Shown in pieces: positions 1 through 15,050 of a stretch of DNA of 15,050 nucleotides (within the stretch, counting starts at the first letter, position 1; every line of letters starts with the position of its first letter). The notes under the pieces were generated by a model, which had not been told where the DNA came from, did no database searches, and worked only from the letters and a program-made list of their open reading frames with translations. This DNA comes from a virus (Duplodnaviria > Heunggongvirae > Uroviricota > Caudoviricetes), in the IMG/VR virus record IMGVR_UViG_2713896729_000010, positions 1 to 15,050 of that record. One strand, written 5' to 3'. Made by a program: the position numbers and the translations under genes.

Positions 1-482
1 TTTTTATTTCTCTTTCAGGTGAATAGATCGTTTTTACTATTTTACCCCGCACGAATCATCGTTAAAATCAGATTATAGTGTAGGAATAACTCGTTTTTTA
101 CGAGCAATTAAAGGATTTGCGCCATCAGCGGTGAGATGAGTTTTTGACGGCTGTAAGCGCTAACGGGTGACCCTAAGCCCTGATAATCATAGCTTAAGGT
201 GAGGATTTCTGAGGGATTAATTAGGAAAAGTAATAATTAATTTCTTGTCAGTCGGCGTTATTTGTTAGGACAATATTTCAAAAATAATCCAGCTTGTCGT
301 CAATAATTGCGATAAAGAGATAAATTAAAGTTAAATAATTAAATCATTAAAAAATTACGCCACAAAAATGCGAGGCGTCTTCAGGATTAGAATCGATAAA
401 ACAGAATGGGTTAAAGAGAGCGATATAATAGCGGCGGGTGCTTGAGGCTATCTGTCTCAGGCATTAGCTGAACGGCAGATAG

Positions 483-537
483 AGAAAAGCCCCGAGTGAT
501 ATTTTACTATCAACCCGAGGCCCCCTATATGCTGAAC
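483..537 (-). ncRNA. sokC: Sok-type antisense RNA (approximate placement), antitoxin of the hok/sok type I toxin-antitoxin locus
   Basis: Placed only by analogy with the known hok/sok organisation, where the antisense RNA overlaps the mok start (here 529). No promoter or terminator was verified in the sequence, and the coordinates rest on remembered E. coli K-12 positions. Confidence 0.3.
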
Positions 538-738
538 ACATGTAGAGTGCCTCTTACTGACCGTAAGGTCAAGGAGAAGAGAGCAATGAAGCAGCATAAG
601 GCGATGATTGTCGCCCTGATCGTCATCTGTATCACCGCCGTAGTGGCGGTGCTGGTAACGAGAAAAGACCTCTGTGAGGTTCACATCCGAACTGGCCAGA
701 CGGAGGTTGCTGTTTTCACGGCTTACGAATCCGAGTAA
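529..738 (+). CDS. mokC: MokC, overlapping in-frame leader ORF that regulates hokC translation
   Basis: ATG at 529 in frame with hokC and sharing its stop; translation MLNTCRVPLTDRKVKEKRAMKQHK... The track ORF 496..738 is the same frame from an upstream GTG. Confidence 0.65.
   Translation: MLNTCRVPLTDRKVKEKRAMKQHKAMIVALIVICITAVVAVLVTRKDLCEVHIRTGQTEVAVFTAYESE
586..738 (+). CDS. hokC: Hok/Gef family small membrane toxin (50 aa)
   Basis: Translation MKQHKAMIVALIVICITAVVAVLVTRKDLCEVHIRTGQTEVAVFTAYESE matches the Hok/Gef family as I recall it: single transmembrane helix followed by the conserved RKDLCEV..RTG..EVAVF..YE motif. Confidence 0.9.
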   Translation: MKQHKAMIVALIVICITAVVAVLVTRKDLCEVHIRTGQTEVAVFTAYESE

Positions 739-818
739 GAGCAACGGCGGGGAGTGATCCCATAAGCGCTAACTTAAGGGTTGTGGTATTACGCCTGATA
801 TGATTTAACGTGCCGATG

Positions 819-828
819 NNNNNNNNNN
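819..828. other. N10 run, assembly gap or contig join
   Basis: Ten consecutive N. Flanking sequences (hok locus versus phage gpW) are not collinear in any genome I know. Confidence 0.9.
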
Positions 829-1839
<1,011 letters not shown>

Positions 1840-1915
1840 AACCCTTGCTGCGTCTGGAATGTCGTTTTCCATGCTTTTGATGACCGTTCATCACCCTTCC
1901 AGTTTTTCGCGGTTT

Positions 1916-1970
1916 TGTGTATTGCAATGTGTATTGCAAATTGGCGATCGGGATGGGTGTGTATTGCAAA
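1916..1970 (+). repeat. Three direct copies of GTGTATTGCAA, candidate integrase arm-type binding sites
   Basis: tgtgtattgcaa (1916-1927), tgtgtattgcaaa (1928-1940), gtgtgtattgcaaa (1957-1970), between the core and the int start. The same motif recurs near attR. Confidence 0.6.
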
Positions 1971-1987
1971 TCTCTTGAGGGCTTTTA

Positions 1988-3229
1988 ATGGCTATTGAAA
2001 ACAAACTCAGTGACAAACTGTTAAAGAGTCTTGTCGGAAAACGGCAGGACAAACAAAAAACAATAGCGGATGGGCGCGGGTTGTCTGTGCGTGTAAGCAT
2101 GGTTGGGGGGATCAGCTTTGTTTTTTACTATCGTCTTGGTGGCAGGGAATCCCCTCCGGTATGGCTTACACTTGGTCGCTATCCTGACATGTCTCTTGCA
2201 ACGGCCAGGCGCATGCGTGATCAGTGCCGTGAATGGCTGGCTGAAAATCTGGACCCCCGCAGGCAAATAAAACTTGCTGCCGAAAAAACTATGCAACCAG
2301 TGACCGTAAGGGATGCGCTGTTTTACTGGTACGACAATCACGCCACAACAGCCAGAAAAGAGCATGAATATTTAATAAAACGATTTGAAAAGCATATCTT
2401 CCCCTATATCGGTGATATGGCTATAGAACAGTGCAAATTACACACATGGCTTACCGTCTTTGACAGGATCAAAAAAAATGCGCCTGTTATGTCTGGTGCA
2501 ATTTTTCTTGATATCAAACAGGCGTTGCGTTTTTGTCGCGTCAGGCAATACATCGCGTGCGATCCCTTTGGAGATATTAACGTAAGTTATGTCGGGCGCT
2601 CATCCGGTATAAGGGATCGCGTTCTTAATATCAATGAAACCGCTGATGTATGGTCTTATGCTTACGGTAATAATTTGCTAACTCTGTCATCAATATATAA
2701 CCGAAGAATAATGGTTATCTGCCTGGTGTTTGGTTGCCGACAGCAGGAGGCGAGGCTATCCACCTGGGACGAATGGGATTTAAAAAACTGGGTATGGACA
2801 GTCCCAAAAGAGCACAGCAAAAACAAGGAGGCTATAGTAAGGCCTGTTCCTGACGGAATAAAACAATGGATCGTTAATCTTTACGCAGAAACAAAAAATC
2901 GCGGTTATGTTGTCGGTTGTGCTTTGCAAAGGGCGACAATAACAGGGGCTGCAAACAGAATATGCAGGCGTCTTGGTCATGATACTAATGGCTTGTGGTG
3001 CATACATGATTTCAGGCGCACATTTTCCACTACGCTTAATGATATGGGGGCGGATCCTTATATTGTCGAACTTCTTTTAGGTCATAAAGTGAAAGGGGTT
3101 GCTGGTGTTTACAATAAAAGCAGGCATATAAAGAAAAAACTTGAGGTGCTTAATATGTGGGTTAATTACCTTAATACGATAGCAGGATTTAACAACAACG
3201 TTATCGAGCTTAATAAAGAGGTGGTGTGA
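1988..3229 (+). CDS. int: Tyrosine site-specific integrase, P4-like family
   Basis: 413 aa. N-terminal arm-binding-like region (GRGLSVRVSMVGGISFVFYYRLGG...YPDMSLATARRMRDQ). C-terminal catalytic motifs CRQQEA (R), HDFRRTF (HxxR) and GVYNKS (Y nucleophile). SD gaggg 6-7 nt upstream of the ATG. Confidence 0.95.
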   Translation: MAIENKLSDKLLKSLVGKRQDKQKTIADGRGLSVRVSMVGGISFVFYYRLGGRESPPVWLTLGRYPDMSLATARRMRDQCREWLAENLDPRRQIKLAAEKTMQPVTVRDALFYWYDNHATTARKEHEYLIKRFEKHIFPYIGDMAIEQCKLHTWLTVFDRIKKNAPVMSGAIFLDIKQALRFCRVRQYIACDPFGDINVSYVGRSSGIRDRVLNINETADVWSYAYGNNLLTLSSIYNRRIMVICLVFGCRQQEARLSTWDEWDLKNWVWTVPKEHSKNKEAIVRPVPDGIKQWIVNLYAETKNRGYVVGCALQRATITGAANRICRRLGHDTNGLWCIHDFRRTFSTTLNDMGADPYIVELLLGHKVKGVAGVYNKSRHIKKKLEVLNMWVNYLNTIAGFNNNVIELNKEVV

Positions 3230-3230
3230 T

Positions 3231-3488
3231 ATGGCAATTTATTCTCTTGTTGATGAAAACGATTTGCGCACAATGAAGGACATTGATCGGTTCATTCGTG
3301 AAAAAGAGTGCATAGCACTTACCACGCTGGCAAACTCAACACGCTGGAAAATGGAGCAGGCAGGTAAATTCCCGCGACGTATCAAGATCGGTGAACGTGC
3401 TGCAGGGTATCGACTTTCAGAGGTTCAGGCATGGATCCGTGGTGAGTGGCATCCTGGATGGAAACCTGGAAAAACAAAACAGCAATAA
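3231..3488 (+). CDS. alpA: AlpA-family HTH regulator / excisionase-like protein
   Basis: 85 aa. Translation ...IALTTLANSTRWKMEQAGKFPRRIKIGERAAGYRLSEVQAWIRGEW resembles the AlpA/Vis helix-turn-helix. Start is 1 nt after the int stop, so likely translationally coupled. Confidence 0.85.
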   Translation: MAIYSLVDENDLRTMKDIDRFIREKECIALTTLANSTRWKMEQAGKFPRRIKIGERAAGYRLSEVQAWIRGEWHPGWKPGKTKQQ

Positions 3489-3501
3489 CCAGTAAATAAT
3501 G

Positions 3502-3524
3502 CCCCTCATCACGAGGGGTTTTTT
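3502..3524 (+). terminator. Rho-independent terminator after alpA
   Basis: CCCCTC-ATCAC-GAGGGG stem-loop followed by TTTTTT. Confidence 0.75.
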
Positions 3525-3544
3525 GTCTATAAGGTAAAAACGCG

Positions 3545-4123
3545 ATGAATAAAAATATTGCCGTGACGGGCAAGGGGTACGCTCGTCCAGTGAAAAAATT
3601 CTGCGATATTCGTGATCTCGTCGTTCTGCGCTTTGATAGTGTGAACGTTCGTGTGGTGTATCTGAACGGCGATCCGTGGTTTGTTGCAAAAGATGTTTGT
3701 GCTGCGCTGGAACTAACCAATTCGCGTACGGCGTTGCAGATGCTTGATGATGATGAAAAGGGAGTAAATTTAACTTACACCCCAGGAGGAAATCAGAATA
3801 TGAGAATTATCTCTGAGTCAGGTTTCTACAAACTAATAGCCCGCAGCCGCAAAGCAACGACGCCTGGCACATTTGCTCATCGTTTCAGTAACTGGGTATT
3901 CAGAAATGTGATACCAGGTATCAGAAAAACGGGGACTTATGGTATCCCGTGGGGTGCATTACAGGATTTTTCCCGCCGTAAAGAGCAATATCAAATAAGT
4001 GCCAGCGAGAAGGGGAGGGAGCTACAGGCATGTAAGCGCAAAAAGCGTGAGCTGGAGGAAGAAGAAAAAACGCTGATACGTGAATATCAGCCTGAGTTTT
4101 ACTTTGGTAACCGCATTCAGTGA
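3545..4123 (+). CDS. Bro-N domain protein (antirepressor-like), with a charged coiled-coil-like C-terminus
   Basis: 192 aa. N-terminal region VRVVYLNGDPWFVAKDVCAALELTNSRTALQMLDDDEKGV...RIISESGFYKLIARSRK fits the Bro-N fold as I recall it. C-terminus is K/E-rich (KRKKRELEEEEKTL). Confidence 0.75.
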   Translation: MNKNIAVTGKGYARPVKKFCDIRDLVVLRFDSVNVRVVYLNGDPWFVAKDVCAALELTNSRTALQMLDDDEKGVNLTYTPGGNQNMRIISESGFYKLIARSRKATTPGTFAHRFSNWVFRNVIPGIRKTGTYGIPWGALQDFSRRKEQYQISASEKGRELQACKRKKRELEEEEKTLIREYQPEFYFGNRIQ

Positions 4124-4132
4124 CAAAACAAA

Positions 4133-4153
4133 GGCGACCGCAAAAGGGTCGCC
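4133..4153 (-). terminator. Rho-independent terminator for the leftward regulator operon
   Basis: GGCGACC-gcaaaag-GGTCGCC hairpin. The T-run (tttgttttgtca) lies on the minus-strand 3' side, so it terminates leftward transcription; there is no T-run on the plus side. Confidence 0.65.
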
Positions 4154-4219
4154 AGTGGGAACAAGGGAAAACAAAAGCATCACCAACAATGCCACATTTG
4201 CGGCTGGTGGGCAATGTGA

Positions 4220-4399
4220 TCAGTCAGATTTGGTTCGTTCCAAGGTTTGCAACGAGAGCTTTTTCCTGTGCTCTTTAAGGAATTTCTCAAGAGCAAACGA
4301 ACAAGGTGCGAATCTTTCTGATTCATGTTCATGCGCTATATTTTTGCGTCGTCTCTTACGAGTTGGTGATGGTGTTTTGGTTGATTCTGTGTCGCTCAT
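4220..4399 (-). CDS. Small basic hypothetical protein (59 aa), second gene of the leftward operon
   Basis: Not in the supplied track (below its size cut-off). Hand translation MSDTESTKTPSPTRKRRRKNIAHEHESERFAPCSFALEKFLKEHRKKLSLQTLERTKSD. SD AGGA 7 nt upstream of the ATG. Lies between the 101-aa gene and the minus-strand terminator. Confidence 0.4.
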   Translation of the reverse strand: MSDTESTKTPSPTRKRRRKNIAHEHESERFAPCSFALEKFLKEHRKKLSLQTLERTKSD

Positions 4400-4456
4400 G
4401 GTGCTGTCCTGTAAAGCAATGCGCCTGCGTTCCTCAAACTATGGCGCTGATATTGG

Positions 4457-4762
4457 CTATTCATGCTCTTTGACCTTGCGTCGCTGGAGTTCTTCACGCG
4501 CGACGGTGACGAGTTGCCCGATCTCCTCGGCTGCTTTGATGCCGATTTGTTCGACCTTAGCCAGGGCATCCAGTGACGACACAAGGGGATTTTCTCCGCT
4601 GCCTTCTGCTTGGCGGCGGGCTATTTCTCCGCGCATGGCGGTTACGATAAATCCGGCATTGCTTTCACCGTCCAGCTTAACGGATTCCATCCCTTGCATA
4701 ACATCTAGTGGGACTCTGACAGTTGTCAGTTGTGATTTTGCGTTTTTGTTAGCCGTTGCCAT
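4457..4762 (-). CDS. Hypothetical protein (101 aa), candidate island repressor/regulator by position
   Basis: Strong SD AGGAG 8 nt upstream of the ATG. Divergent from the rightward early operon across a palindromic operator. No family recognised from sequence. Confidence 0.7.
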   Translation of the reverse strand: MATANKNAKSQLTTVRVPLDVMQGMESVKLDGESNAGFIVTAMRGEIARRQAEGSGENPLVSSLDALAKVEQIGIKAAEEIGQLVTVAREELQRRKVKEHE

Positions 4763-4823
4763 TTCTGAAACTCCTAATCATCGGTGTGTTTCAGTATACA
4801 CAAAAAAAGAAATACAAAAAGCC

Positions 4824-4861
4824 TTGACGTGTGTTTCATGCGCTCATAACATGAAACACAC
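4824..4861 (+). promoter_or_regulatory. Candidate sigma-70 promoter of the rightward early operon overlapped by a perfect 12-bp inverted-repeat operator
   Basis: -35 TTGACG (4824-4829), 17-bp spacer, -10 TAACAT (4847-4852). Inverted repeat GTGTGTTTCATG (4829-4840) / CATGAAACACAC (4850-4861) with 9-bp spacer. Extra half-site GTGTGTTTCAG at 4784-4794. Confidence 0.55.
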
Positions 4862-4952
4862 CGAAAGGATTGTTGAAATACAAAGAGCAACGCCCCGCAG
4901 TGCTGGGAACACATACGGGGCGTCTAACCAACAACGTAAACTAGGAGCCGTT

Positions 4953-5150
4953 ATGGTTGCTGTAAATCATATACCACACCTTGTACACACACAAACGGCC
5001 TTTGTGTGGCGTTTTCTGGCACTGAGTGCCGGAGAATCTCAAATCATCCACGTAACCGCCTGGACGGAACGCGAAGCGCGTAGCCGTTGCCCGTCCGGTT
5101 GTGTTGCTGTATTCGCTGCAAAAATCCGCCAGGGAGTGAGTCATGCTTAA
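4953..5150 (+). CDS. Hypothetical small protein (65 aa), first gene of the rightward early operon
   Basis: SD AGGAG (4944-4948) 4 nt before the ATG. Translation MVAVNHIPHLVHTQTAFVWRFLALSAGESQIIHVTAWTEREARSRCPSGCVAVFAAKIRQGVSHA. This is the C-terminal part of the track's 4080..5150 ORF, which I reject as a whole. Confidence 0.55.
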   Translation: MVAVNHIPHLVHTQTAFVWRFLALSAGESQIIHVTAWTEREARSRCPSGCVAVFAAKIRQGVSHA

Positions 5151-5328
5151 AACCTTCCGTGTATTTGCCCGAGCTGTTAACCCAATAGGCCACACAATTG
5201 GTATCGCTCAGAATGTGAAGGCTGTTAATGTTCAGACGGCTATTGCTGCGGTGAGAAGCGAATCATCAGAATATGGCTTATCACAAGTCATTATTTCAGC
5301 AGTGTATGAATTAAAAGAGGTGCATTAA
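5143..5328 (+). CDS. Hypothetical small protein (61 aa)
   Basis: Start overlaps the upstream stop (ATGCTTAA); SD gggag upstream. Confidence 0.5.
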   Translation: MLKTFRVFARAVNPIGHTIGIAQNVKAVNVQTAIAAVRSESSEYGLSQVIISAVYELKEVH

Positions 5329-5519
5329 TGCAGGAAATTACATTACACGAAGCCGCTGAACGTGCGCACCAGACAGAAATTATTTGCCGCCTTCTTGAGG
5401 TATACCCGAACAAAATTACAGATGCTGATATATCCGCACTGGCGAGCCTACTGGCGCGTCTTTCGGGAAGTGTCGCTAGTTTTTTGATTGAGGAAGAAAG
5501 TAAGCTGGTGGGGGATTAA
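5328..5519 (+). CDS. Hypothetical small acidic protein (63 aa)
   Basis: TAATG stop/start overlap with the upstream gene; SD aagagg upstream. Confidence 0.55.
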   Translation: MQEITLHEAAERAHQTEIICRLLEVYPNKITDADISALASLLARLSGSVASFLIEEESKLVGD

Positions 5520-5741
5520 ATGAATACAGAACGGGAAGTCTTTTTTAAATTGTTAGCATGTGCAGAAAGTTCATTAACTTTAAATAATTCAGCAAAAGCA
5601 ATATTAAATATGTGGCTTGATTGCATAAATGACAATGAAGATGCAAATATTGCTTATGGCCTGTTGTCACTTATTGATGAATCAGCAGAAAAACTCAATG
5701 ACGCAATAAATAGTGCCCTGCTATCAAATAAGTCGAGTTAA
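5520..5741 (+). CDS. Hypothetical small acidic protein (73 aa) in an AT-rich segment
   Basis: TAAATG overlap with the upstream gene. Local base composition is visibly AT-richer than its neighbours, suggesting a recently acquired cargo gene. Confidence 0.5.
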   Translation: MNTEREVFFKLLACAESSLTLNNSAKAILNMWLDCINDNEDANIAYGLLSLIDESAEKLNDAINSALLSNKSS

Positions 5742-5758
5742 GTCGAGGAATAAATAAT

Positions 5759-6058
5759 ATGGAAATGAAAAATTCTGGCTTTATTGCCAGCGGCCCCGCT
5801 CGACCTGAATTTATGAACGGCGATATTTACCGCGATAAATACGGCGGCACGGTAACGATTAAAGGCGTGGCAGAACGGCGCATCACTTACCGCCGTGAGG
5901 GGTATAGCTATGACTGCGTGATGCCTGTTTATCAGTTCCGGCGTGATTTTCCCCTGGTATATGCCGCACCCCGCAGTAAGCCCATCAGCAGGGAAAAAGC
6001 GTGGGGAAATATCCAGAAAATGAAAACCATGATTAACGGATTCAGAGGTAAAAAATGA
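5759..6058 (+). CDS. Hypothetical protein (99 aa), translationally coupled to the helicase gene
   Basis: SD gagga upstream. Stop overlaps the helicase start (ATGA at 6055-6058). Confidence 0.6.
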   Translation: MEMKNSGFIASGPARPEFMNGDIYRDKYGGTVTIKGVAERRITYRREGYSYDCVMPVYQFRRDFPLVYAAPRSKPISREKAWGNIQKMKTMINGFRGKK

Positions 6059-7809
6059 AACTGGCACCGAACGTAAAACAGCAGTCACGCGGCATAAAAC
6101 ACAAAGGAACAGAAGTCATTATTTTTGCGGGTAGTGATGCCTGGGCACACGCGAAACAATGGCAGGAACATGATGCGCGTATGGCCGGAGATAATGAGCC
6201 TCCTGTGTGGCTTGGGGAGCAGCAGCTATCCGAACTGGATAATCTGCAAATTGTGCCGGAAGGCCGAAAATCAGCACGCATATACAGGGCCGGATATCTT
6301 GCGCCTGTAATGATAAAGGCGATTGGTCAGAAGCTGGCGGCAGCAGGCGTACAGGATGCAAATTTTTATCCTGAGGGTATGCACGGCCAGGAGGTGCAGA
6401 ACTGGCGCGAATATCTGGCCCGTGAACGCCAGAATCTTTCTGATGGTCTGGTCATTGAGCTTCCGGTAAAGCAAAAGGCGCAACTTTCGCAGATGGCGGA
6501 CAGTGAGCGCGCGCAGTTGCTTGCCGATCGCTTTGATGGCGTTTGCGTACATCCTGAAAGTGAAATCGTTCACGTATGGCGCGGCGGGGTATGGTGTCCG
6601 GTCAGCACAATGGAACTTAGCCGCGAAATGGTGGCGATCTATTCAGAGCACAGGGCCACTTTCAGCAAGCGCGTAATCAATAACGCCGTGGAAGCGTTAA
6701 AAGTTATTGCCGAACCAATGGGCGAGCCGTCTGGCGATTTGCTGCCGTTCGCCAATGGTGCGCTTGACCTGAAAACGGGGGAATTTTCCCCGCACACGCC
6801 GGAGAACTGGATCACCACGCACAACGGCATTGAGTACACGCCACCAGCACCAGGGGAGAACATCCGCGATAACGCGCCAAACTTTCATAAATGGCTTGAG
6901 CACGCAGCCGGAAAAGACCCGCGCAAGATGATGCGTATATGTGCCGCGCTGTACATGATTATGGCGAACCGGTACGACTGGCAGATGTTTATTGAGGCCA
7001 CCGGAGACGGCGGGAGCGGTAAAAGTACATTCACACACATAGCCAGCCTTCTGGCAGGGAAACAGAACACGGTAAGCGCTGAAATGACATCGCTTGATGA
7101 TGCTGGTGGACGTGCGCAGGTTGTCGGGAGTCGTCTTATCGTCCTGGCTGACCAGCCGAAATATACAGGCGAAGGAACGGGCATCAAGAAAATCACAGGC
7201 GGCGACCCCGTGGAAATTAACCCGAAATATGAAAAGCGTTTCACGGCGGTAATCAGGGCGGTGGTGCTGGCGACCAACAACAACCCGATGATATTCACCG
7301 AACGGGCCGGAGGTGTGGCACGTCGTCGCGTGATTTTCCGTTTCGACAATATCGTCAGTGAGGCCGAAAAAGACAGGGAGCTACCGGAAAAGATTGCGGC
7401 TGAAATCCCCGTTATTATCCGCCGATTGCTGGCGAACTTTACCGACCCTGAGAAGGCACGGGCTTTACTACTGGAACAGCGTGACGGTGATGAAGCACTG
7501 GCAATAAAGCAACAGACGGATCCGGTTATTGAGTTTTGCCAGTTCCTGAATTTTCTGGAGGAAGCGCGCGGCCTGATGATGGGTGGCGGTGGTGATTCAG
7601 TGAAGTACACGACCAGGAACAGCCTTTACCGCGTCTATCTGGCGTTTATGGCATACGCGGGCAGGAGCAAACCGCTAAACGTGGCTGAGTTCAGCAAGGC
7701 CATGAAGCCAGCGGCGAAAGTTTACGGGCATGAATATATTACGCGAAAAGTTAAGGGAGTAACGCAGACCAACGCAATTACAACAGACGATTGCGACGCG
7801 TTTTTATAA
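6055..7809 (+). CDS. Replication initiator / SF3 helicase (D5_N-like domain plus NTPase, resembling the P4 alpha C-terminal half); no clear primase motif seen in the N-terminus
   Basis: 584 aa. Walker A GDGGSGKST and Walker B-like LIVLADQ. The conserved region before the NTPase resembles the D5_N / P4-family C-terminal domain. Iteron origin immediately downstream. Confidence 0.88.
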   Translation: MKLAPNVKQQSRGIKHKGTEVIIFAGSDAWAHAKQWQEHDARMAGDNEPPVWLGEQQLSELDNLQIVPEGRKSARIYRAGYLAPVMIKAIGQKLAAAGVQDANFYPEGMHGQEVQNWREYLARERQNLSDGLVIELPVKQKAQLSQMADSERAQLLADRFDGVCVHPESEIVHVWRGGVWCPVSTMELSREMVAIYSEHRATFSKRVINNAVEALKVIAEPMGEPSGDLLPFANGALDLKTGEFSPHTPENWITTHNGIEYTPPAPGENIRDNAPNFHKWLEHAAGKDPRKMMRICAALYMIMANRYDWQMFIEATGDGGSGKSTFTHIASLLAGKQNTVSAEMTSLDDAGGRAQVVGSRLIVLADQPKYTGEGTGIKKITGGDPVEINPKYEKRFTAVIRAVVLATNNNPMIFTERAGGVARRRVIFRFDNIVSEAEKDRELPEKIAAEIPVIIRRLLANFTDPEKARALLLEQRDGDEALAIKQQTDPVIEFCQFLNFLEEARGLMMGGGGDSVKYTTRNSLYRVYLAFMAYAGRSKPLNVAEFSKAMKPAAKVYGHEYITRKVKGVTQTNAITTDDCDAFL

Positions 7810-7824
7810 TTTTTTGTAAAAGCC

Positions 7825-8042
7825 ATCTACCCCATCTACCTGAACAAAATAAACGCATATTATTCAACATGATAAGTGGGTATAGGGCTAGGTAGAAGGC
7901 TAATAAAAGCTCTCTACCTCTTCTACCTGATTTTATCAGTTTCAGGTAGCAGGGTAGACGGCAGGTAGAGGAGTCAAAAAGCTATCTACCCGCTGAAAGC
8001 CGCGCCATTACTGACATGATGAGCATTCGGGTAGATGGGTAG
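7825..8042. repeat. Iteron-type replication origin: at least 11 copies of GGTAG / CTACC arranged as inverted clusters
   Basis: ccatctaccccatctacc (7823-7840); ggtag at 7891, 7945, 7953, 7964, 8030, 8038; ctacc at 7914, 7923, 7986. Terminal clusters are mutual reverse complements (catctacc / ggtagatg). Lies directly after the initiator gene. Confidence 0.8.
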
Positions 8043-8157
8043 AGGGGGGGAGGCACAACTAAAAACTTTTTAAACGAGGGGGGGGTGAAAATAAATGCGC
8101 ATACATAAAAATCACTTAATAAACATGCCAGCCGAAAACATGAATCAGGGGCGACAA

Positions 8158-8409
8158 ATGACCAAAATTCGCAGAGACAGAACACAGGCAAAATATAAAG
8201 CGTTAGACATGACAGAGCTTTCCTTAAAGGTGGCAATCAAAGCGATAGACCACCACACACGGGCAGGATACGCGAAGGAACATCCCGACCTGATAAGCGC
8301 ATTCATGACCACAGCAGCGGCAAACTTTGCCACGCTGACAGAACGGGAGATTGCCGAAGCGGAACAGGTGACAACCATCAATGTTAAAACCGGAGAGCAG
8401 ACAGCATGA
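8158..8409 (+). CDS. Hypothetical protein (84 aa; start uncertain, alternative starts at 8139 or 8095)
   Basis: SD agggg 6 nt before ATG 8158. Stop overlaps the SSB-like gene start (ATGA at 8406). Confidence 0.55.
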   Translation: MTKIRRDRTQAKYKALDMTELSLKVAIKAIDHHTRAGYAKEHPDLISAFMTTAAANFATLTEREIAEAEQVTTINVKTGEQTA

Positions 8410-8855
8410 CAGCACAGATAGCGGCTTACGGGCGGCTGGTGGCTGACCCGCAGTTAAAGACCACCAGCAAAGGGACACAAATGGCGATGGCGAGTATGGC
8501 GGTTCCCCTGCCGTGCAGCCAGGCAGATGACGGAACGGCGACGATGTGGTTATCCGTCCTGGCGTTTGGCAGACAGGCCGACGCACTGGCAAAACACCAC
8601 AAAGGCGAACTGGTGAGCGTGGCGGGTAACATGCAGGTAAGCCAGTGGACAGGCCAGAACGGCGAAACGCGGCGGGGCTGGCAGGTTATCGCAGACAGCG
8701 TAATCAGTGCGCGAACGGCGCGACCGGGCGGCAAAAAAGGCCAACAGGGGCAGGCTACTGACGAACTGAACAGAGCAAAACAACAGGCAGATCAGCAAGG
8801 AAGCCAGCCACCAGTGGGAGATAATGAGCAATGGGGAGATGATATCCCGTTTTAA
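8406..8855 (+). CDS. ssb: Single-stranded DNA-binding protein homologue with SSB-like acidic C-terminal tip
   Basis: 149 aa. OB-fold-like N-terminus (GRLVADPQLKTTSKGTQMAMASMAV...WLSVLAFGRQADALAKHHKGELVSVAGNMQVSQW), Gly/Gln-rich linker, and C-terminus ...WGDDIPF resembling the DDDIPF tip of bacterial SSB. Confidence 0.8.
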   Translation: MTAQIAAYGRLVADPQLKTTSKGTQMAMASMAVPLPCSQADDGTATMWLSVLAFGRQADALAKHHKGELVSVAGNMQVSQWTGQNGETRRGWQVIADSVISARTARPGGKKGQQGQATDELNRAKQQADQQGSQPPVGDNEQWGDDIPF

Positions 8856-8873
8856 ATATTGCCAATAAAAAAG

Positions 8874-8897
8874 GCCGGAAAAAATAAATTTTCCGGC
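8874..8897 (+). other. Perfect hairpin between the replication and capsid modules
   Basis: GCCGGAAAA-aataaa-TTTTCCGGC, 9-bp stem. No T-run after it, so not a canonical terminator on the plus strand. Confidence 0.5.
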
Positions 8898-9071
8898 ATG
8901 CTACATAAATCCCGACCAAAGGGAGTGAAGATATTAACACTAATTGTCCGCACTGAAGTTGTCACCCCAAAACTTTATACAACATTGCACTCGGTTGCAT
9001 GTGTTCGCATGACAAATATCGGTGGTAGCATATATCCACAATTATTTTTAATGAATGCAAAGAGGATGCGT

Positions 9072-10112
9072 ATGGTTGATTTATATTCGCCTACTCAGCT
9101 TGTACAGGTGGTTAATGCTGTAGATGTACAAAAACAACTAAATGCGTTGTTTACCAGTTTGTTTTTTACTCGCTCGGTAATGTTTGAATCGCGCGATATT
9201 ATTCTTGATACAATCGACGATCCAAATATCCCAATTGCAGCGTTTTGTTCTCCTATGGTGGGTAGTAAAGTTTCACGTGACGAAGGGTACGAATCAAAAA
9301 CAATTCGTCCAGGCTATATGAAGCCGAAAAGCAGCATTGATCCAAATAAGTTAGCTGTGCGCCCTGCTGGTGTATCACCTGAGCAATACAATGCTTTTGG
9401 GGCACGTAATATTAAAGTTAAACAGGCGATTGTAAATCAGGCTAAAGCTATTCGTGCACGTATTGAATGGCTTGCTGTTCAGGCAATCACAACGGGGAAA
9501 AATATCATTGAGGGCGATGGTATTGAACGTTATGAGCTGGACTGGAATATAAAACCACAAAATATCATCACTCAGTCTGGCGGTACTGAGTGGTCAGGTA
9601 AGGATAAAGAAACTTTTGATCCAAATGATGATATTGAGAGCTACGCAGAATTTAGTGAGGGCGTCACTAATATCATCATTATGGGTGGTAATGTATGGAA
9701 GAAATACCGTTCATTCAGAGCGATAAAAGAGGCTTTGGATACCCGTCGTGGTTCTAATTCCGAACTGGAAACGGCCCTTAAAGACCTTGGTGATTCGGTG
9801 AGTTTTAAAGGGTATATGGGCGATGTTGCGATTGTTGTTTACAGCGGGCGTTATACCGACGAGGACGGAACAGAAAAACATTTCCTTGATCCTGATTTGA
9901 TGGTGCTTGGCAATACGGCTCTTCAGGGGATTGTCGCCTATGGCGGTATTCAGGATCCGGAGCTAATCCGAATGGGGCTGACTAAAGCCGAACTTGCACC
10001 GAAAAACTATATTGTGCCTGGTGATCCGGCTATTGAATATGTGCAGACACATTCAGCACCACAGCCAATACCGGCCCGCATCAATCGTTTTGTTACCGTT
10101 CGCATTGGCTAA
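9072..10112 (+). CDS. Major capsid protein, homologue of lambda gpE
   Basis: 346 aa from ATG 9072 (SD aagagg 8 nt upstream). Collinear similarity to lambda E as I recall it: N-terminus MVDLYSPTQL versus MSMYTTAQL; NIITQSGGTEWSGKDKETFDPNDDIESYA versus NITQSGGTEWSKRDKSTYDPTDDIEAYA; LDTRRGSNSELETALKDLG...GDVAIVVYSG nearly identical. The track ORF starts at an upstream TTG (8859), which I reject. Confidence 0.9.
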   Translation: MVDLYSPTQLVQVVNAVDVQKQLNALFTSLFFTRSVMFESRDIILDTIDDPNIPIAAFCSPMVGSKVSRDEGYESKTIRPGYMKPKSSIDPNKLAVRPAGVSPEQYNAFGARNIKVKQAIVNQAKAIRARIEWLAVQAITTGKNIIEGDGIERYELDWNIKPQNIITQSGGTEWSGKDKETFDPNDDIESYAEFSEGVTNIIIMGGNVWKKYRSFRAIKEALDTRRGSNSELETALKDLGDSVSFKGYMGDVAIVVYSGRYTDEDGTEKHFLDPDLMVLGNTALQGIVAYGGIQDPELIRMGLTKAELAPKNYIVPGDPAIEYVQTHSAPQPIPARINRFVTVRIG

Positions 10113-10121
10113 GGGGGAGCA

Positions 10122-10463
10122 ATGGCTACTCATTACACTGAACTCATGGCTGGCACTGAAGCACTGGTGACTACGCTGGGGATATTTTCAGCTAATAAAG
10201 GGGTAATTCCTGCATTTACGCCACTGATGCAGGAAGATGCAACAGGTGCACTGGTGGTATGGGATGGTTCGAGCGTAGGTAAAGCGGTTTATGTTTCCGC
10301 TGTACAAATCGACACAGCGAAAAAAACACAGGCACAGGTTTATAAGACAGGTGTTTTAAATGTTGATGCTCTGAACTGGCCTGAGTCTGTAAAAGAACTG
10401 TCGGCAAAGGTTGCCGCGTTTGTTGGCTCAGGTATTTCTGTTCAGCCGCTGGCTCGTGTGTAA
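10122..10463 (+). CDS. Head decoration protein, homologue of lambda gpD
   Basis: 113 aa, SD gggggag. Similar to lambda D as I recall it: TPLM..D....LVVWDG...YK.G......WPE......AF.G..IS. Confidence 0.85.
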   Translation: MATHYTELMAGTEALVTTLGIFSANKGVIPAFTPLMQEDATGALVVWDGSSVGKAVYVSAVQIDTAKKTQAQVYKTGVLNVDALNWPESVKELSAKVAAFVGSGISVQPLARV

Positions 10464-10474
10464 AGGGGGATACA

Positions 10475-10858
10475 ATGCAGAATCATTACAATGACCTTAA
10501 GCCAATTGCCGAAATGATGTATCCGGATCCAGCAGTAGAGGAATTAAAGGCTATTGCTGACAAAATGCGTTTAAGTGAACGCCTTGTTGATATGAATCAG
10601 GTGATGGAACTTACTACCCTTAGCCGTCGCACATTGCTAAACCTTGAGGCTAGTGGAGAGTTCCCGGAGCGTGTGCAGGTTACGGAAGGGCGTAAGGCCT
10701 GGTATTTAAGTGAAGTGATCGACTGGATAAACAATATTCCTCGATCTTCTGAATATTGCCGCGTACCTGTCCCAAAAAAGCCAGATGCGGCGCTATGCCT
10801 CAAGATTGAGCGTGTACGTCGCAATGCACGGGATGGTCGCTATAAGTTGATTGGTTGA
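10475..10858 (+). CDS. Second AlpA-family HTH protein (127 aa, with an N-terminal extension), immediately upstream of cos
   Basis: SD aaggggga. Translation ...MELTTLSRRTLLNLEASGEFPERVQVTEGRKAWYLSEVIDWIN is an AlpA-like helix-turn-helix. Confidence 0.7.
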   Translation: MQNHYNDLKPIAEMMYPDPAVEELKAIADKMRLSERLVDMNQVMELTTLSRRTLLNLEASGEFPERVQVTEGRKAWYLSEVIDWINNIPRSSEYCRVPVPKKPDAALCLKIERVRRNARDGRYKLIG

Positions 10859-10884
10859 TGAAATTAGGGCCCGTTCTGGCTGGC

Positions 10885-10948
10885 GGGTCCTTTCCGGCGA
10901 TCCGGTAGGCTACGGGGCGGCGACCTCGCGGGTTTTCGCTATTTATGA
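10885..10948 (+). other. cos site: lambda-type cosN (12-nt cohesive-end sequence GGGCGGCGACCT at 10915-10926) with lambda-like flanks
   Basis: gggtcctttccggcgatccggtaggctacg|GGGCGGCGACCT|cgcgggttttcgctatttatga agrees almost base for base with the lambda cos junction as I recall it. Sequence downstream (10949-11059), where cosB would be, is unlike lambda. Confidence 0.85.
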
Positions 10949-11059
10949 GCCTTTTTCGGGTGCTGGTGGTGGTTTTGTTGTTCGCTCTATCTCTATGAAT
11001 AAAAAGGAAAAGATAAAGCCAATACACCAACCTGAAACATTACTTAAGTGGGGATATTG

Positions 11060-11530
11060 ATGAAATCGCACCTGATGAACAAAAAAAACATGGCGCAAAG
11101 CTGCCGTGTAAGTGCGACAGCGTTCGACAAGTGGGGAGTGACTCCCGTTGAACGTAAAGGCCGCGAGGCGTTTTATGATGTTGCCAGCGTAATAGACAAT
11201 CGGGTTAGCAATGCAATTAACCAGATTACAGACGACAAAGGCGAGATTGATGATGATGAACTCCTACGAGTCAGGATCAGATTGCTGACAGCACAGGCAG
11301 AGGCGCAGGAGCTTAAAAACGAGCGCGAACGCGGCGACGTTATTGATACAGCGTTTTGTATATACGTGCTTTCAAAATTGGCGAGTCAGATTTCTTCAAT
11401 CATGGACAGCCTGCCGCTTGCCATGACAAGGAAGTTTCCCGACATGAAGCCGTCTATGCTGGATGGACTGAAAAAGAAGTTATCAGAGCCTGTAACGCAT
11501 GCGCAAAACTTGACGAAAACATACCGCTGA
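11060..11530 (+). CDS. Terminase small subunit, homologue of lambda Nu1; the C-terminal Nu1-like segment continues in the -1 frame to 11601
   Basis: N-terminal ..NKKNMAQSCRVSATAFDKWGV aligns with the Nu1 N-terminus (NKKQLADIFGASIRTIQNWQEQG). Central block LTAQAEAQELKNERERGDVIDTAFCIYVLSKLASQISSIMDSLPLAMTRKFP is nearly collinear with Nu1 (LTRAQADAQELKNARDSAEVVETAFCTFVLSRIAGEIASILDGLPLSVQRRFP). Start could also be 11075 or 11090. Confidence 0.85.
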   Translation: MKSHLMNKKNMAQSCRVSATAFDKWGVTPVERKGREAFYDVASVIDNRVSNAINQITDDKGEIDDDELLRVRIRLLTAQAEAQELKNERERGDVIDTAFCIYVLSKLASQISSIMDSLPLAMTRKFPDMKPSMLDGLKKKLSEPVTHAQNLTKTYR

Positions 11531-11612
11531 TGCTGTCCGATTATCTGATGGAAACTGCCGGAAACGTACCGGATAAGTTGCAGCCGAATAAAGATAAGTA
11601 ACGTAGTACGCT

Positions 11613-11894
11613 ATGACTGAATCCGAAATACTGCGATTAATCCGCCGTGCTTGTGGAATCAGCAAGCAGCATGACGAACAGGCCACGCAGCCGGACAGCG
11701 TGACCGCAGATAATTATGTGCGTGTAGTGGCTGAGGTGATGCGCCGTGACGGTATTGAGCTTAACGGCGTGGATATGCGCAACATACGAACAAGAGTCCT
11801 TGAGTTGCTGGCATATCGTCGCCGTTCTCAACAACGGAGGGAGAGCGCGAAAAATACTTACCAGTGGAAGAAGCCGGAACGATTGCGGCGGTAA
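11613..11894 (+). CDS. Hypothetical basic protein (93 aa) downstream of the small terminase gene
   Basis: ORF with Arg-rich C-terminus (RRRSQQRRESAKNTYQWKKPERLRR). Weak SD and no recognisable family. Confidence 0.45.
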   Translation: MTESEILRLIRRACGISKQHDEQATQPDSVTADNYVRVVAEVMRRDGIELNGVDMRNIRTRVLELLAYRRRSQQRRESAKNTYQWKKPERLRR

Positions 11895-12146
11895 CTTGCT
11901 GATATTCCCGATAACGCAAAATTGCGCTGGCTGACTTGTTGCATTGCAAAAAGTTAAGCAGGAAGGCACGGCCTGTAAGATGGGATGCAGTAAGTAGTTC
12001 AAGGCTACCTTGTGCTGGCACGCACAGTTAAGCCGTCGGTGCTGGATATCCCCCACTGGGGGAAAAGCTGGCTACATCCCTCACATCTGAGGACTGATAA
12101 CGCGACATTGCGCTGGCTGGCAAAGTGCAAAATTGCACGATGGCCT

Positions 12147-12290
12147 AACCCATTGATTATTTCGAAAACCTGCAATGCAGGAAATCGGGGAAGTAAGCCT
12201 AAGCTATTGATTGTTTCGAAAACCCCCATTGGGGGATGTCGGGAAAGTAAGACTAACCCATTGATTCTTCCACAATCCTCAATTTGAGGA
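12147..12290. repeat. Tandem ~54-bp repeat, 2.7 copies, each with a different 13-bp palindrome
   Basis: Conserved unit (C/G)C(C/T)ATTGATT.TT.C.A.AA.CC followed by cctgcaAtgcagg (12169-12181), cccccaTTggggg (12223-12235) and cctcaaTttgagg (12277-12289). Confidence 0.75.
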
Positions 12291-12608
12291 GGCCGGAACG
12301 TCTACATAGCTGCATCGCCGTAATGATGATTCAGCCCACCAGCCAAATCAGCACAGCAACGACAGAATAGCCCGACACAGAAAAACCACGAATATGGGGT
12401 TTTTGTTATGACATGGTCATGATGACCACTCATACAAAACAGGTAAAGCCCACCAGCCTGATTAAAGGTTAACCGGAAAAAAGCCAGGTATCCAATCTCG
12501 ATATGGGGATCCCTATATCGACATTAACGCCCACTAAAACTGTGCATATATGCATAGAAAAAGCATCCACCAGCTTTATGACGGATGCCGCTCATCTTAT
12601 AAATAATC

Positions 12609-12630
12609 GTGTATTGCAGTGTGTATTGCG
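12609..12630 (+). repeat. Two further direct copies of the GTGTATTGC(A/G) arm-type motif near attR
   Basis: gtgtattgca (12609-12618) and gtgtattgcg (12621-12630), about 75-95 bp from the right core, same orientation as the three copies near attL. Confidence 0.6.
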
Positions 12631-12703
12631 ACTCCTTTAAACGATAGGTCTGAGCATTCGTAATGTACTGTTTTTAAATTTTATTTTTTCCTGTCTTTTC
12701 ATA

Positions 12704-12716
12704 AAGGCGATGTATG
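12704..12716. repeat. attR core (right copy of the 13-bp direct repeat)
   Basis: AAGGCGATGTATG; phage-identical sequence continues rightward (gtatgccgccaccattgag). Confidence 0.8.
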
Positions 12717-12933
12717 CCGCCACCATTGAGAGTGAGCTGGATACGCAGTCAGCGATGGATTTTATTCTGGGCGCGAACAGTCAGGAGCAGCGGGAAAGGC
12801 TGACCGGCTGGATTGGTGAAATTGCCGCGTATTACGCCGCAGCGCCGGTCCGGCTGGGAGGCGCAAAAGTACCGCACCTGATGCCGGGGGACTCACTGAA
12901 CCTGCAGACGGCTCAGGACACGGATAACGGCTA
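12704..12933 (+). CDS. B: lambda-type portal protein B, continuation after the island (truncated at the N10 gap)
   Basis: In frame from the core: KAMYAATIESELDTQSAMDFILGANSQEQRERLTGWIGEIAAYYAAAPVRLGGAKVPHLMPGDSLNLQTAQDTDNG, matching the region of lambda B that follows ...QSAIVKA. Confidence 0.9.
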
Positions 12934-12943
12934 NNNNNNNNNN
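12934..12943. other. N10 run, assembly gap or contig join
   Basis: Ten N; flanks are portal gene versus a glutamate decarboxylase fragment. Confidence 0.9.
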
Positions 12944-13063
12944 ATCGGCCTGGAATTTATCCAGCGCATCGTGCAGCGGTTGTGGGAACTCATAGTTACC
13001 AGTGTAGGTCACGCCGAAAGTCGGCACCACGCCGATGGTGTTTTCGTCACAGGCTTCAATCAT
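12944..13063 (-). CDS. Internal 40-codon fragment of glutamate decarboxylase (GadA/GadB-like), isolated between two N10 runs
   Basis: Minus-strand translation [40 protein letters not shown] matches an internal segment of E. coli Gad as I recall it. Confidence 0.6.
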
Positions 13064-13073
13064 NNNNNNNNNN
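13064..13073. other. N10 run, assembly gap or contig join
   Basis: Ten N. Confidence 0.9.
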
Positions 13074-13673
<600 letters not shown>

Positions 13674-13683
13674 NNNNNNNNNN
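13674..13683. other. N10 run, assembly gap or contig join
   Basis: Ten N; the J frame does not continue across it. Confidence 0.9.
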
Positions 13684-15050
13684 ATAACGCGTCCGCAGTG
13701 GCACAGAACACGGCAGCCGCAAAGAAGTCAGCCAGCGATGCCGGCACATCTGCCCGTGAGGCGGCAACCCATGCAACCGATGCTGCAGGCTCAGCACGTG
13801 CCGCCAGCACGTCAGCCGGACAGGCTGCATCATCTGCTCAGTCAGCATCTTCCAGCGCAGGAACGGCATCAACAAAGGCCACTGAAGCATTAAAAAGTGC
13901 TGCCGCTGCAGAGTCCTCAAAAAGCGCGGCAGCCACCAGTGCCGGTGCGGCGAAAACGTCAGAAACGAATGCCGCAGCATCACAACTATCAGCAGCCACT
14001 TCTGCATCCACCGCGACCACGAAGGCGTCAGAAGCTGCCACCTCAGCCCGGGATGCGGCGGCCTCAAAAGAGGCAGCGAAATCATCAGAAACGAACGCAT
14101 CATCAAGTGCCAGTAGTGCAGCTTCCTCGGCAACGGCGGCAGGAAATTCCGCGAAGGCCGCAAAAACGTCTGAGACGAATGCGGATAACAGCGCACAGGC
14201 GGCAGCAGACTCACAAACTGCATCGGCAAACTCCGCGACAGCCGCCAAAAAATCAGAAACCAACGCGAAAAATAGCGAGGCAGCAGCAAAGAGCAGCGAA
14301 ACAAACGCTAAAGCCAGCGAAACTAATGCTAAATCCAGTGAAACAAACGCGGCGAAATCTGCGGCGGACGCACTTAATTATCGCAACCATGCTCAGGGTA
14401 TTGTTGGTGCTAACATCGGTTTGGGATCATCACCGCGCAATTGTCCTGATATTTCCGGTGATCCATCCGGTTATATTGGCTTTATGCGCATTTTTGCTTC
14501 CGCAACAGGTTTTCCGTCTATTGCATCAGGCGAAGGTAATCTTACTGGTTTTATTAGTCAGGTAGATGGAACACCAGCGTATACAGGTGTATTTCAGGGA
14601 TGGACTACTCGCTCGCTTTATACCTATCGCTGGAGTCCGACAATAGGCCCGCAATGGACACGCCACGCTCGCAAAAATGAAGTGGACCGTCTTGACCAAT
14701 TGAATAGCGAAACATGGTTATATAACCATGATAAATCCATGCGCCTGGGTTTAACCGCCTCATCATGGGGTTGTTACAGCGATACACAAAAAAAATGGAT
14801 ACCGCTTGATGTTTCTCATGGTGGCACTGGCGCGGCAACTATTGATGGTGCCAGAACTAATCTTGGATTAGGCAGGGATAACAGCCCTCAGCTTAATAGT
14901 CTATTTCTCGATAGGACTAGTGATTCTACTGGCGCATACACTACTGGCGGGATGCTCCATACGAGACTGTTAGCAAATGATAACACTGTGCGCCTTGCCG
15001 CTGATATGTATGTTCAGACTTTTCCAAATGAGCAAGGTCGATTAACAATA
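13684..15050 (+). CDS. stf: Side tail fiber protein (lambda Stf family), partial at both ends, with an Ala/Ser-rich SETNA repeat region
   Basis: Open frame (codons from 13686) with no stop to the window end. Repeats AKTSETNAAAS, AKSSETNASSS, AKTSETNADNS, KKSETNAKNS, KSSETNAKASETNAKSSETNAAKS, then a globular region (..NYRNHAQGIVGANIGLGSSPRNCPDISGDPSGYIGF...). Not in the track because it lacks a start and stop inside the window. Confidence 0.85.

Follow-up and report, generated by a model that had tools for sequence, protein, structure and literature searches.

Tandem units in an Escherichia coli phage satellite match an internal segment of lambdoid roi genes and are candidate Roi- and IHF-binding modules

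The stretch of DNA analysed here (the window, 15,050 nt; positions 1 to 15,050 of the IMG/VR record IMGVR_UViG_2713896729_000010) contains a phage satellite. This island is a helper-embedded phage-inducible chromosomal island (HE-PICI) located in the portal gene of an E. coli prophage. After its last gene, 400–565 bp from the attR core, it carries an array of three tandem units of 54 bp. Each unit is the reverse complement of a segment of the lambdoid phage gene roi (codons ~41–58), and the three units correspond to three allele classes of that gene. Each unit can be described as a putative allele-specific palindromic operator of the Rha/Roi family with an adjacent site for integration host factor (IHF), with one module per specificity class (A, B and C). 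The reading that we favour, to which we give about an even chance, is that the array consists of protein-binding modules that act as double-stranded DNA, were copied from within regulator genes of helper phages and would capture Roi/Rha and IHF, and not of functional hairpins.

The three tandem units noticed in a preliminary description of this DNA are real, and lie as in-register copies at 12143–12196 (unit 1, class A), 12197–12250 (unit 2, class B) and 12251–12304 (unit 3, class C), none being assigned to a strand. In an in-register repeat comparison, unit 2 was 80% and unit 3 was 61% identical to unit 1, and Tandem Repeats Finder reported a period of 54 bp at 12143–12266 (2.3 copies, 80% matches). 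This phasing corresponds to about five helical turns. Unit 1, the reverse complement of the roi class A segment (LPALQVFEKINNLG; CCTGCATTGCAGG), contains the palindrome CCTGCAATGCAGG at 12169–12181 and the IHF consensus match AATCAATGGGTTA on the minus strand at 12146–12158. Unit 2 contains the palindrome CCCCCATTGGGGG at 12223–12235 and the IHF match AATCAATAGCTTA at 12200–12212, also on the minus strand. The palindrome of unit 3 is TCCTCAATTTGAGGA, that is, (T)CCTCAATTTGAGG(A), at 12276–12290, with the IHF match AATCAATGGGTTA at 12254–12266 on the minus strand. Perfect matches to the IHF consensus WATCAANNNNTTR number three in the 15-kb window, one per unit and in phase, when 0.8 would be expected.

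Unit 2 was retrieved in a search of a phage collection, antisense and inside roi of HK629, VT2-Sakai and other Stx phages (90.6% identity over 53 nt), and unit 3 lies, likewise antisense, inside the KilAC antirepressor gene (a roi allele) of phage phi330 and of E. coli prophages (96% over 50 nt). A survey of roi alleles (eighty IMG/VR roi loci and HK022) detected in every class palindromic DNA at codons ~43–47, followed 10–11 nt later by an IHF consensus (codons 51–55). The sense-strand palindromes are CCTGCATTGCAGG in class A, CCCCCAATGGTGG in class B and CCTCAA(A/T)TTGAGG in class C. In phages, the whole module occupies codons ~43–56. The palindromes of units 1, 2 and 3 are odd palindromes identical to those of phage-gene classes A, B and C, respectively, and their distance to the IHF site equals that of the roi alleles and HK022, which is fixed at 10–11 nt in the enterobacterial Roi subfamily. 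In HK022, a palindrome of class A type is followed after 10–11 nt by the sole IHF consensus in 8 kb, within roi codons 44–55. Roi of HK022 reportedly binds a site in its own gene that is closely linked to an IHF site, with IHF stabilizing the binding. The minus strand of the array is still open in the roi frame through all three units (...PQIEDCGRINGL, ...PPMGVFETINSLG and ...PALQVFEIINGLG), and the units therefore trace to coding sequence. Simple duplication followed by drift is inadequate to explain the array, because the three units match three different alleles. The idea that the island palindromes are 'perfected' versions of imperfect phage ones was dropped, since other phages have perfect CCCCCAATGGGGG alleles. 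The roi alleles themselves are mosaic, with a junction just after the segment homologous to the array.

The N-terminal pRha winged-helix domain (Pfam) is present in 559 phage records, including Stx phages and Vibrio phage ICP1, and the pRha/Roi N-terminal domain scores against HTH_Crp_2 and HTH_24. Comparison with solved structures gave no relevant match for Roi; the sole matches, to spectrin at E about 0.1–0.2, look like chance. We compared 141 distinct pRha/Roi variants from E. coli, Klebsiella, Pseudomonas, Acinetobacter, Ralstonia, Vibrio (including ICP1) and APSE phage records and from uncultivated IMG/VR viral contigs (loci L009–L089 and L117–L286). An odd palindrome with arms of 5–12 bp is centred exactly 30 nt past the putative recognition helix in 102 of them. 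At that codon, 48% of nucleotide positions centre a palindrome, compared with about 0.2–0.7% at most other codons. The six inner pairs are Watson–Crick in 92% of cases, versus 21–41% when the partner is slid by 1–3 nt. All four Watson–Crick types occur at pair ±4 (in 66, 23, 21 and 12 variants), with just two G-T cells, and the left-arm base of this pair is the synonymous third position of a Pro codon. The fixed position, the Watson–Crick excess and the covarying synonymous base therefore indicate selection for dyad symmetry in the phage genes, acting on the nucleotide sequence itself. Some pRha/Roi alleles contain perfect palindromes of 21–25 bp inside the open reading frame (ORF), as in Ralstonia phage Heva and a Stx1 phage (L118).

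The palindrome is also linked to the protein. In all 102 palindrome-bearing variants, pair ±4 (left/right base) can be predicted from helix residue x1, which immediately precedes the conserved Val in the putative recognition helix: Asn goes with T/A, Ser with A/T, Lys or His with C/G, and Asp with G/C. Considering the +4 base, the combinations Asn-A, Lys/His-G and Asp-C agree with commonly cited amino-acid/base preferences. The inner triplet (CAA, CCA or GCA) varies with two further positions of the helix. What covaries is the base and not the amino acid that it helps to encode, because with Asn the codon containing the +4 base encodes either Glu or Gln. Since the symmetry is fixed in position, compensatory and tied to a helix residue, the palindromes look like cognate operators of Roi/Rha proteins. 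About 30 years ago, the Roi/Rha genes were reportedly described as the reason why some phages need IHF, and they are said to have received little follow-up.

The preliminary description had interpreted the changing stems of the array as selection on hairpin structure, in RNA or in single-stranded DNA, rather than on a fixed protein-binding sequence. Its observation of stem-preserving change holds insofar as dyad symmetry is selected and the changes are compensatory, as the inner pairs and the four types at pair ±4 indicate; the choice of a hairpin over a protein site as the target does not. Paired compensatory changes are seen among the 141 phage variants, whereas the island palindromes are nearly invariant within a class. 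Each island word is identical to the palindrome found in one allele class of a gene for a phage DNA-binding protein. If the units were generic stem-loops acting in transcription, replication or packaging, with structure alone under selection, one would expect pairing to be kept, as it is through compensatory changes in the homologous phage elements, and stem-loops to be predicted, as they are in the centroid folds of the array. Moreover, the C-to-T changes in two variant island units (L003 and L095) would still allow G-U pairing on the plus strand. However, the stems measure merely 5–7 bp and their centres only 1–3 nt, which are poor for hairpin loops; the fold z-scores of the array are modest (-2.7 on the minus strand and -1.8 on the plus strand); and array orientation varies between islands. 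The stems are also a handful of fixed words tied to one helix residue in 102 of 102 variants, G-T intermediates are almost absent from the covarying pairs, and the fixed spacing to the IHF consensus argues for a duplex nucleoprotein complex. A packaging role is further contradicted by the position of the packaging site, an exact lambda cosN that lies elsewhere (10915–10926). We consider generic hairpins quite unlikely.

The repeat region extends upstream of the three units. Box 2 (12125–12138, strand unassigned, as for the following features) is the palindrome GTGCAAAATTGCAC and stands directly before the first unit in every array seen. A degenerate unit, unit F (11893–11940), consists of TAACTTGCTGATATTCCCGATAAC followed by the palindrome CGCAAAATTGCG at 11915–11926; it overlaps the stop codon of a 93-amino-acid ORF and aligns by eye in register with units 1–3. 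Its second copy (12045–12120), which is interrupted by an insertion, contains the palindromes TCCCCCACTGGGGGA (12049–12063) and CCTCACATCTGAGG (12079–12092) and a 24-bp repeat (12096–12119). The segment inserted between the two copies (11941–12044) is kept in the related islands L004 and L095 and absent from L005. The previously noticed 34-bp recurrence is borne out, with 11910–11933 and 12096–12119 agreeing at 92% and GATAT(T/C)CC occurring at both 11901 and 12045. It reflects an insertion or duplication in the window, because related islands such as L005 lack the intervening 186 bp. No counterpart of unit F, box 2 or the inserted segment was retrieved from the phage collection searched.

All five palindromes named in the preliminary description were found, together with four further ones in the same region, including TTGCATTGCAA at 11939–11949 and CAAGGCTACCTTG at 12000–12012. 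With arms of at least 5 bp and loops of at most 4 nt, the 411 bp at 11895–12305 contain nine palindromes, compared with 1.8 +/- 1.4 in dinucleotide shuffles, none of 500 shuffles reaching nine. No other stretch of the window is as dense in palindromes, the median being 2 per 411 bp. Between the array and the arm motif of attP, a spacer (12305–12607) has repeats of its own: CCACCAGCC occurs three times (at 12336, 12450 and 12567), a 32-bp near-palindrome, AATCTCGATATGGGGATCCCTATATCGACATT, lies at 12494–12525, and a terminator-like sequence, AAAAACCACGAATATGGGGTTTTT, at about 12381–12404. Versions of these spacer repeats occur in the related islands L004 and L007 in a different order.

Of 5426 complete E. 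coli genomes, 714 gave a match to the array query, roi genes being counted along with island arrays; scans of one-genome-per-species contigs found no relatives. In a comparison set of fetched E. coli examples and 24 viral contigs, the units were combined as A-B-C, B-C, A-C, C alone, A-B-insert-C and D-E-F-B-C, and some related islands lacked an array. Unit order is constant, with unit F and box 2 always ahead. Within a class, the island palindrome is nearly invariant while the flanks vary, so that a few fixed words (A, B, C, D and E) recur, and the IHF cores of the island units are at consensus or within one mismatch of it. The spacers of class C occur in two forms, as they do in two phage sub-alleles. 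Classes D and E, found in an O157:H7 island (L007), show a weaker match (81–86% over ~40 nt, E about 0.01–0.03) to the same codons of cro-adjacent pRha genes of Stx phages, one of which contains a 25-bp perfect palindrome. The fetched arrays adjoin at least six chromosomal loci (a prophage portal gene, thiM, phoQ, clpS, dinD and the yagU region). Their distance to the att site varies, with a Q gene lying in between in one case. Both orientations relative to the neighbouring genes occur among islands, the array being co-directional with the upstream genes in the window and in most relatives. No pRha gene was found in any array-bearing island locus examined, nor in a 49-kb locus comprising helper and island (L114). 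In one PICI (L115, NZ_CP027440.1; 9001–9795), several PerC-family genes precede the array, which is directly followed by a Q-family antiterminator gene of the island itself; it is unusual for a satellite to encode Q.

The earlier remark that no credible ORF covers the array is essentially right, as RefSeq annotation is empty under identical array copies. The phage palindromes lie inside a pRha-domain ORF, 30 nt after the recognition helix, whereas those of the array are non-coding, with no start codon or ribosome-binding site placing them in such an ORF. A protein gene on the minus strand was rejected: the sole start is an ATG inside the unit 2 palindrome that has no Shine–Dalgarno sequence, and there is neither RefSeq annotation nor a Pfam match. 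A promoter or terminator role was also discarded, since a scan of the array gave nothing convincing and the hairpin-plus-T-run appearance on the minus strand fails for unit 3. No known RNA family matched the array region at the Rfam gathering threshold; at E <= 10, the sole match was STnc310 in the inserted segment 11941–12044 (E = 4.8; 15.9 bits against a threshold of 40).

Three further explanations have to be weighed against protein-binding modules. The units might be functionless relics, left by repeated recombination between the dynamic late/accessory zone of the islands and the Bro-network (pRha) genes of phages, and persisting only through recent island spread. The roi frame that is still open through the units, the mosaic roi alleles with a junction just past this segment, the capture of phage DNA by PICI late zones (PMC10111431) and the existence of a functional relative without an array, EcCIMP1, are all in keeping with such an origin. 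On the other hand, uniform trimming to a 54-bp operator-plus-IHF module, from at least five alleles, in register and in constant order, would be unexpected for relics. The palindromes have also stayed intact while their flanks diverged, the IHF cores remain at or within one mismatch of consensus, and the distribution is wide, both in genomes matched (roi genes included) and in chromosomal loci. We therefore regard relics as a minor possibility.

Alternatively, the units could form the 3' end of a late operon transcript (terS, orf93, array) and act as an antisense RNA that pairs with the 5' part of helper roi/rha mRNAs of several classes, the hairpins serving as kissing loops. Kissing-loop pairing has precedents in classical antisense systems and in P4 CI/seqA. 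This explanation accounts for the reverse complementarity of the units to roi coding sequence (90–96% over 50–53 nt), for the prevailing co-directional orientation of the array and for the in silico folding of each hairpin, within the z-scores given above. RNA-based immunity is known in P4-like and PICI Bro zones (PMC10111431). Nevertheless, the captured segment is always the module of operator and IHF site, with no instance of the ribosome-binding site or of any other portion of the gene, and conservation within a class is centred on the palindrome and not on the whole unit. In addition, perC-type islands have a neighbouring gene whose transcription would enter the array in the sense orientation, neither a promoter nor a terminator brackets the array, and no Rfam family corresponds to it. 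We judge an antisense RNA array to be unlikely. A very improbable alternative is that the array is an accessory arm of attP, whose three phased IHF bends would aid an integrase/AlpA intasome in excision or integration. The IHF sites are indeed in phase, and the array, at the int-distal end of the island, would come to lie upstream of attP and int once the island is circularized. However, 400–565 bp separate it from the crossover, which puts it outside the arm-type motifs (at about -90 and +138). Islands also differ in the distance from array to att, and a Q gene can intervene. The same array is found in islands at thiM, phoQ, clpS, dinD and the yagU region, and the match to roi alleles would be left unexplained. 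Candidate identities as two known sites were likewise rejected: the array contains no HE-PICI attP arm-type site (a doubled TGTATTGC at about -81 and +132 from the crossover), and a lambda-type cosB would be expected about 50–170 bp from cosN, before the small terminase gene and with R repeats, whereas the array follows cosN at a distance of ~1.2 kb, past both terS and orf93.

If the array does consist of duplex binding modules, then, when a lambdoid phage that encodes Roi grows lytically, dimers of Roi would assemble on it together with IHF of the host, and the 54-bp phasing would set successive complexes on one face of the helix. Being absent from the functional EcCIMP1 and located in a variable island end, the array is accessory and outside excision, replication and packaging. 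Because it is accessory and is carried on a replicating satellite, it might serve as a platform, either a decoy or a sensor, that captures an early regulator made by a helper or competitor phage. Candidate consequences are that Roi is titrated, that transcription meets a roadblock at the end of the island, or that the KilAC domain is recruited. We tentatively propose, while doubting it more than we believe it, a DNA-only accessory device: cassette-like decoy operators of high affinity, one per Rha/Roi class, which would be amplified by satellite replication and would titrate or re-localize the regulator together with IHF, thereby altering the growth of helper or competitor. A corollary, in our view equally doubtful, is that pRha/Roi proteins may autoregulate through an operator inside the coding sequence of their own DNA-binding domain, following a simple residue-to-base code.

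Several points weigh against the interpretation as Roi/IHF modules. The prophage hosting an island identical to this one (NZ_CP031134) has no roi gene in its nin region. EcCIMP1, the one experimentally studied relative, has no array even though its helper Kapi1 has a class C roi, while the related island L116 does have one; therefore, the link is not backed by any validated helper–satellite pair, and induction and transfer do not require the array. The helix–palindrome covariation may be inflated because the two sites are ~10 codons apart and possibly inherited jointly. Most arrays are co-directional with the late operon, and their transcript would be antisense to roi mRNA, which the RNA model also explains. 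The Roi footprint on the palindromes is predicted from sequence comparison. In short, the sequence relationships are strong, and the biology suggested here is putative.

Among known systems, the closest is the Roi/IHF site of HK022, which is the same module in its class A type. The units of the window are reverse-complement copies from three allele classes. The HK022-type phage site is a single coding copy in cis to its own gene, whereas the array comprises three non-coding tandem copies of different specificities in a satellite without a pRha protein. At the lambda origin, the O protein recognizes dyad-symmetric iterons inside gene O, with allele-linked specificity. The likeness is that of a phage DNA-binding protein with sites in its own coding sequence, as proposed for Roi/Rha; the difference is that the four iterons have one specificity and serve replication, while the island origin is likely near the primase gene. 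In F sopC, tandem 43-bp units each have an inverted repeat, and in P1 parS an IHF site is flanked by ParB boxes. These resemble the array in that phased tandem units, marked by a short inverted repeat, an IHF bend or both, serve to build a higher-order nucleoprotein complex, but their units all bind one protein, whereas the palindrome of the array differs per unit and the island has no partition genes. Mimicry of cos sites by E. coli PICIs, with redirection through Rpp/TerS, is described in PMC6739421 and PMC9026076. There too, a satellite copy of a cis-acting helper site allows a helper protein to be used, and this island also has a lambda cosN beside a Nu1-like gene; however, the array is 1.2 kb from cosN, is devoid of R-type repeats and has its match in roi rather than in cosB. 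The portions checked of the PICI literature contained no description of the array (PMC6092414, PMC9026076, PMC10111431 and PMC11773190).

The host island shares with the HE-PICIs of Tommasini, Mageeney & Williams (2023; PMC10111431) a prophage late-gene insertion, a doubled TGTATTGC motif and the succession of Integration, Bro, Replication and Late zones. Here, the insertion is in a late gene that is restored on excision, the attP motif is doubled, and int-AlpA, Bro, primase-SSB and late zones are all present. The two halves of the lambda-family portal gene (958–1839 and 12710–13081) flank the island. The crossover block of the att sites is AAGGCGATNTATG, with attL (AAGGCGATTTATG) at 1783–1795 and attR (AAGGCGATGTATG) at 12703–12715 (+), and joining of the cores restores the frame of the prophage portal ORF (...AIVKAIY joined to AATIESELD...). 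The TGTGTATTGCA repeats, previously taken for att, are arm-type motifs and not the core; their identity with the doubled arm-type motif of HE-PICIs, as given in the same paper, is a reason for assigning the island to this group. The doubled motif lies at 12608–12630 (+) and 1916–1939.

Within the island, a P4-type integrase gene (1988–3229) is followed by AlpA, and the island also encodes a Bro-N protein, a second AlpA-like protein, a D5_N primase/helicase (6055–7809) and SSB. The replication origin is likely near the primase gene, at the repeats 7823–7840 and 8029–8047, by comparison with PMC6092414. Genes for a lambda E-like major capsid protein and a D-like decoration protein (8859–10463) precede the exact lambda cosN, which together with its left-end sequence spans 10915–10948 (+; GGGCGGCGACCTCGCGGGTTTTCGCTATTTATGA) and is located upstream of the Nu1-like small terminase gene terS (11048–11530). 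This cosN/terS layout agrees with known E. coli PICIs (PMC9026076). The satellite thus has its own capsid, decoration and small terminase genes and no portal, protease or large terminase gene, a partial set captured from a lambda-like phage. The conserved 93-amino-acid ORF (orf93, 11613–11894; phrog_1561, no Pfam match) was matched in roughly 1500 of 5426 E. coli genomes and is the last gene before the array in the examined islands that carry it.

Outside the island, a full-length sok antitoxin RNA was detected at 436–588 (Rfam RF01794, 122 bits), which places a hok/sok module immediately before the portal fragment. In NZ_CP031134, whose island has an identical right end including the array, terminase and W genes take the place of hok/sok. 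The window has 40 N bases, of which the first 20 form runs of ten at 819–828 and 12934–12943 and are presumably masked; there are two further runs. One N run interrupts the region of the portal 3' fragment.

If the favoured reading is true, a satellite would interact with phages in a new way, by copying the operator of a phage regulator in several allelic versions, without encoding any protein for this purpose. From its units, one could then predict the phages to which an island responds or with which it interferes. The neglected and widespread Roi/Rha gene family would gain a testable function, and the rule linking one residue to one base pair would be usable to predict or re-engineer the specificity of its members.

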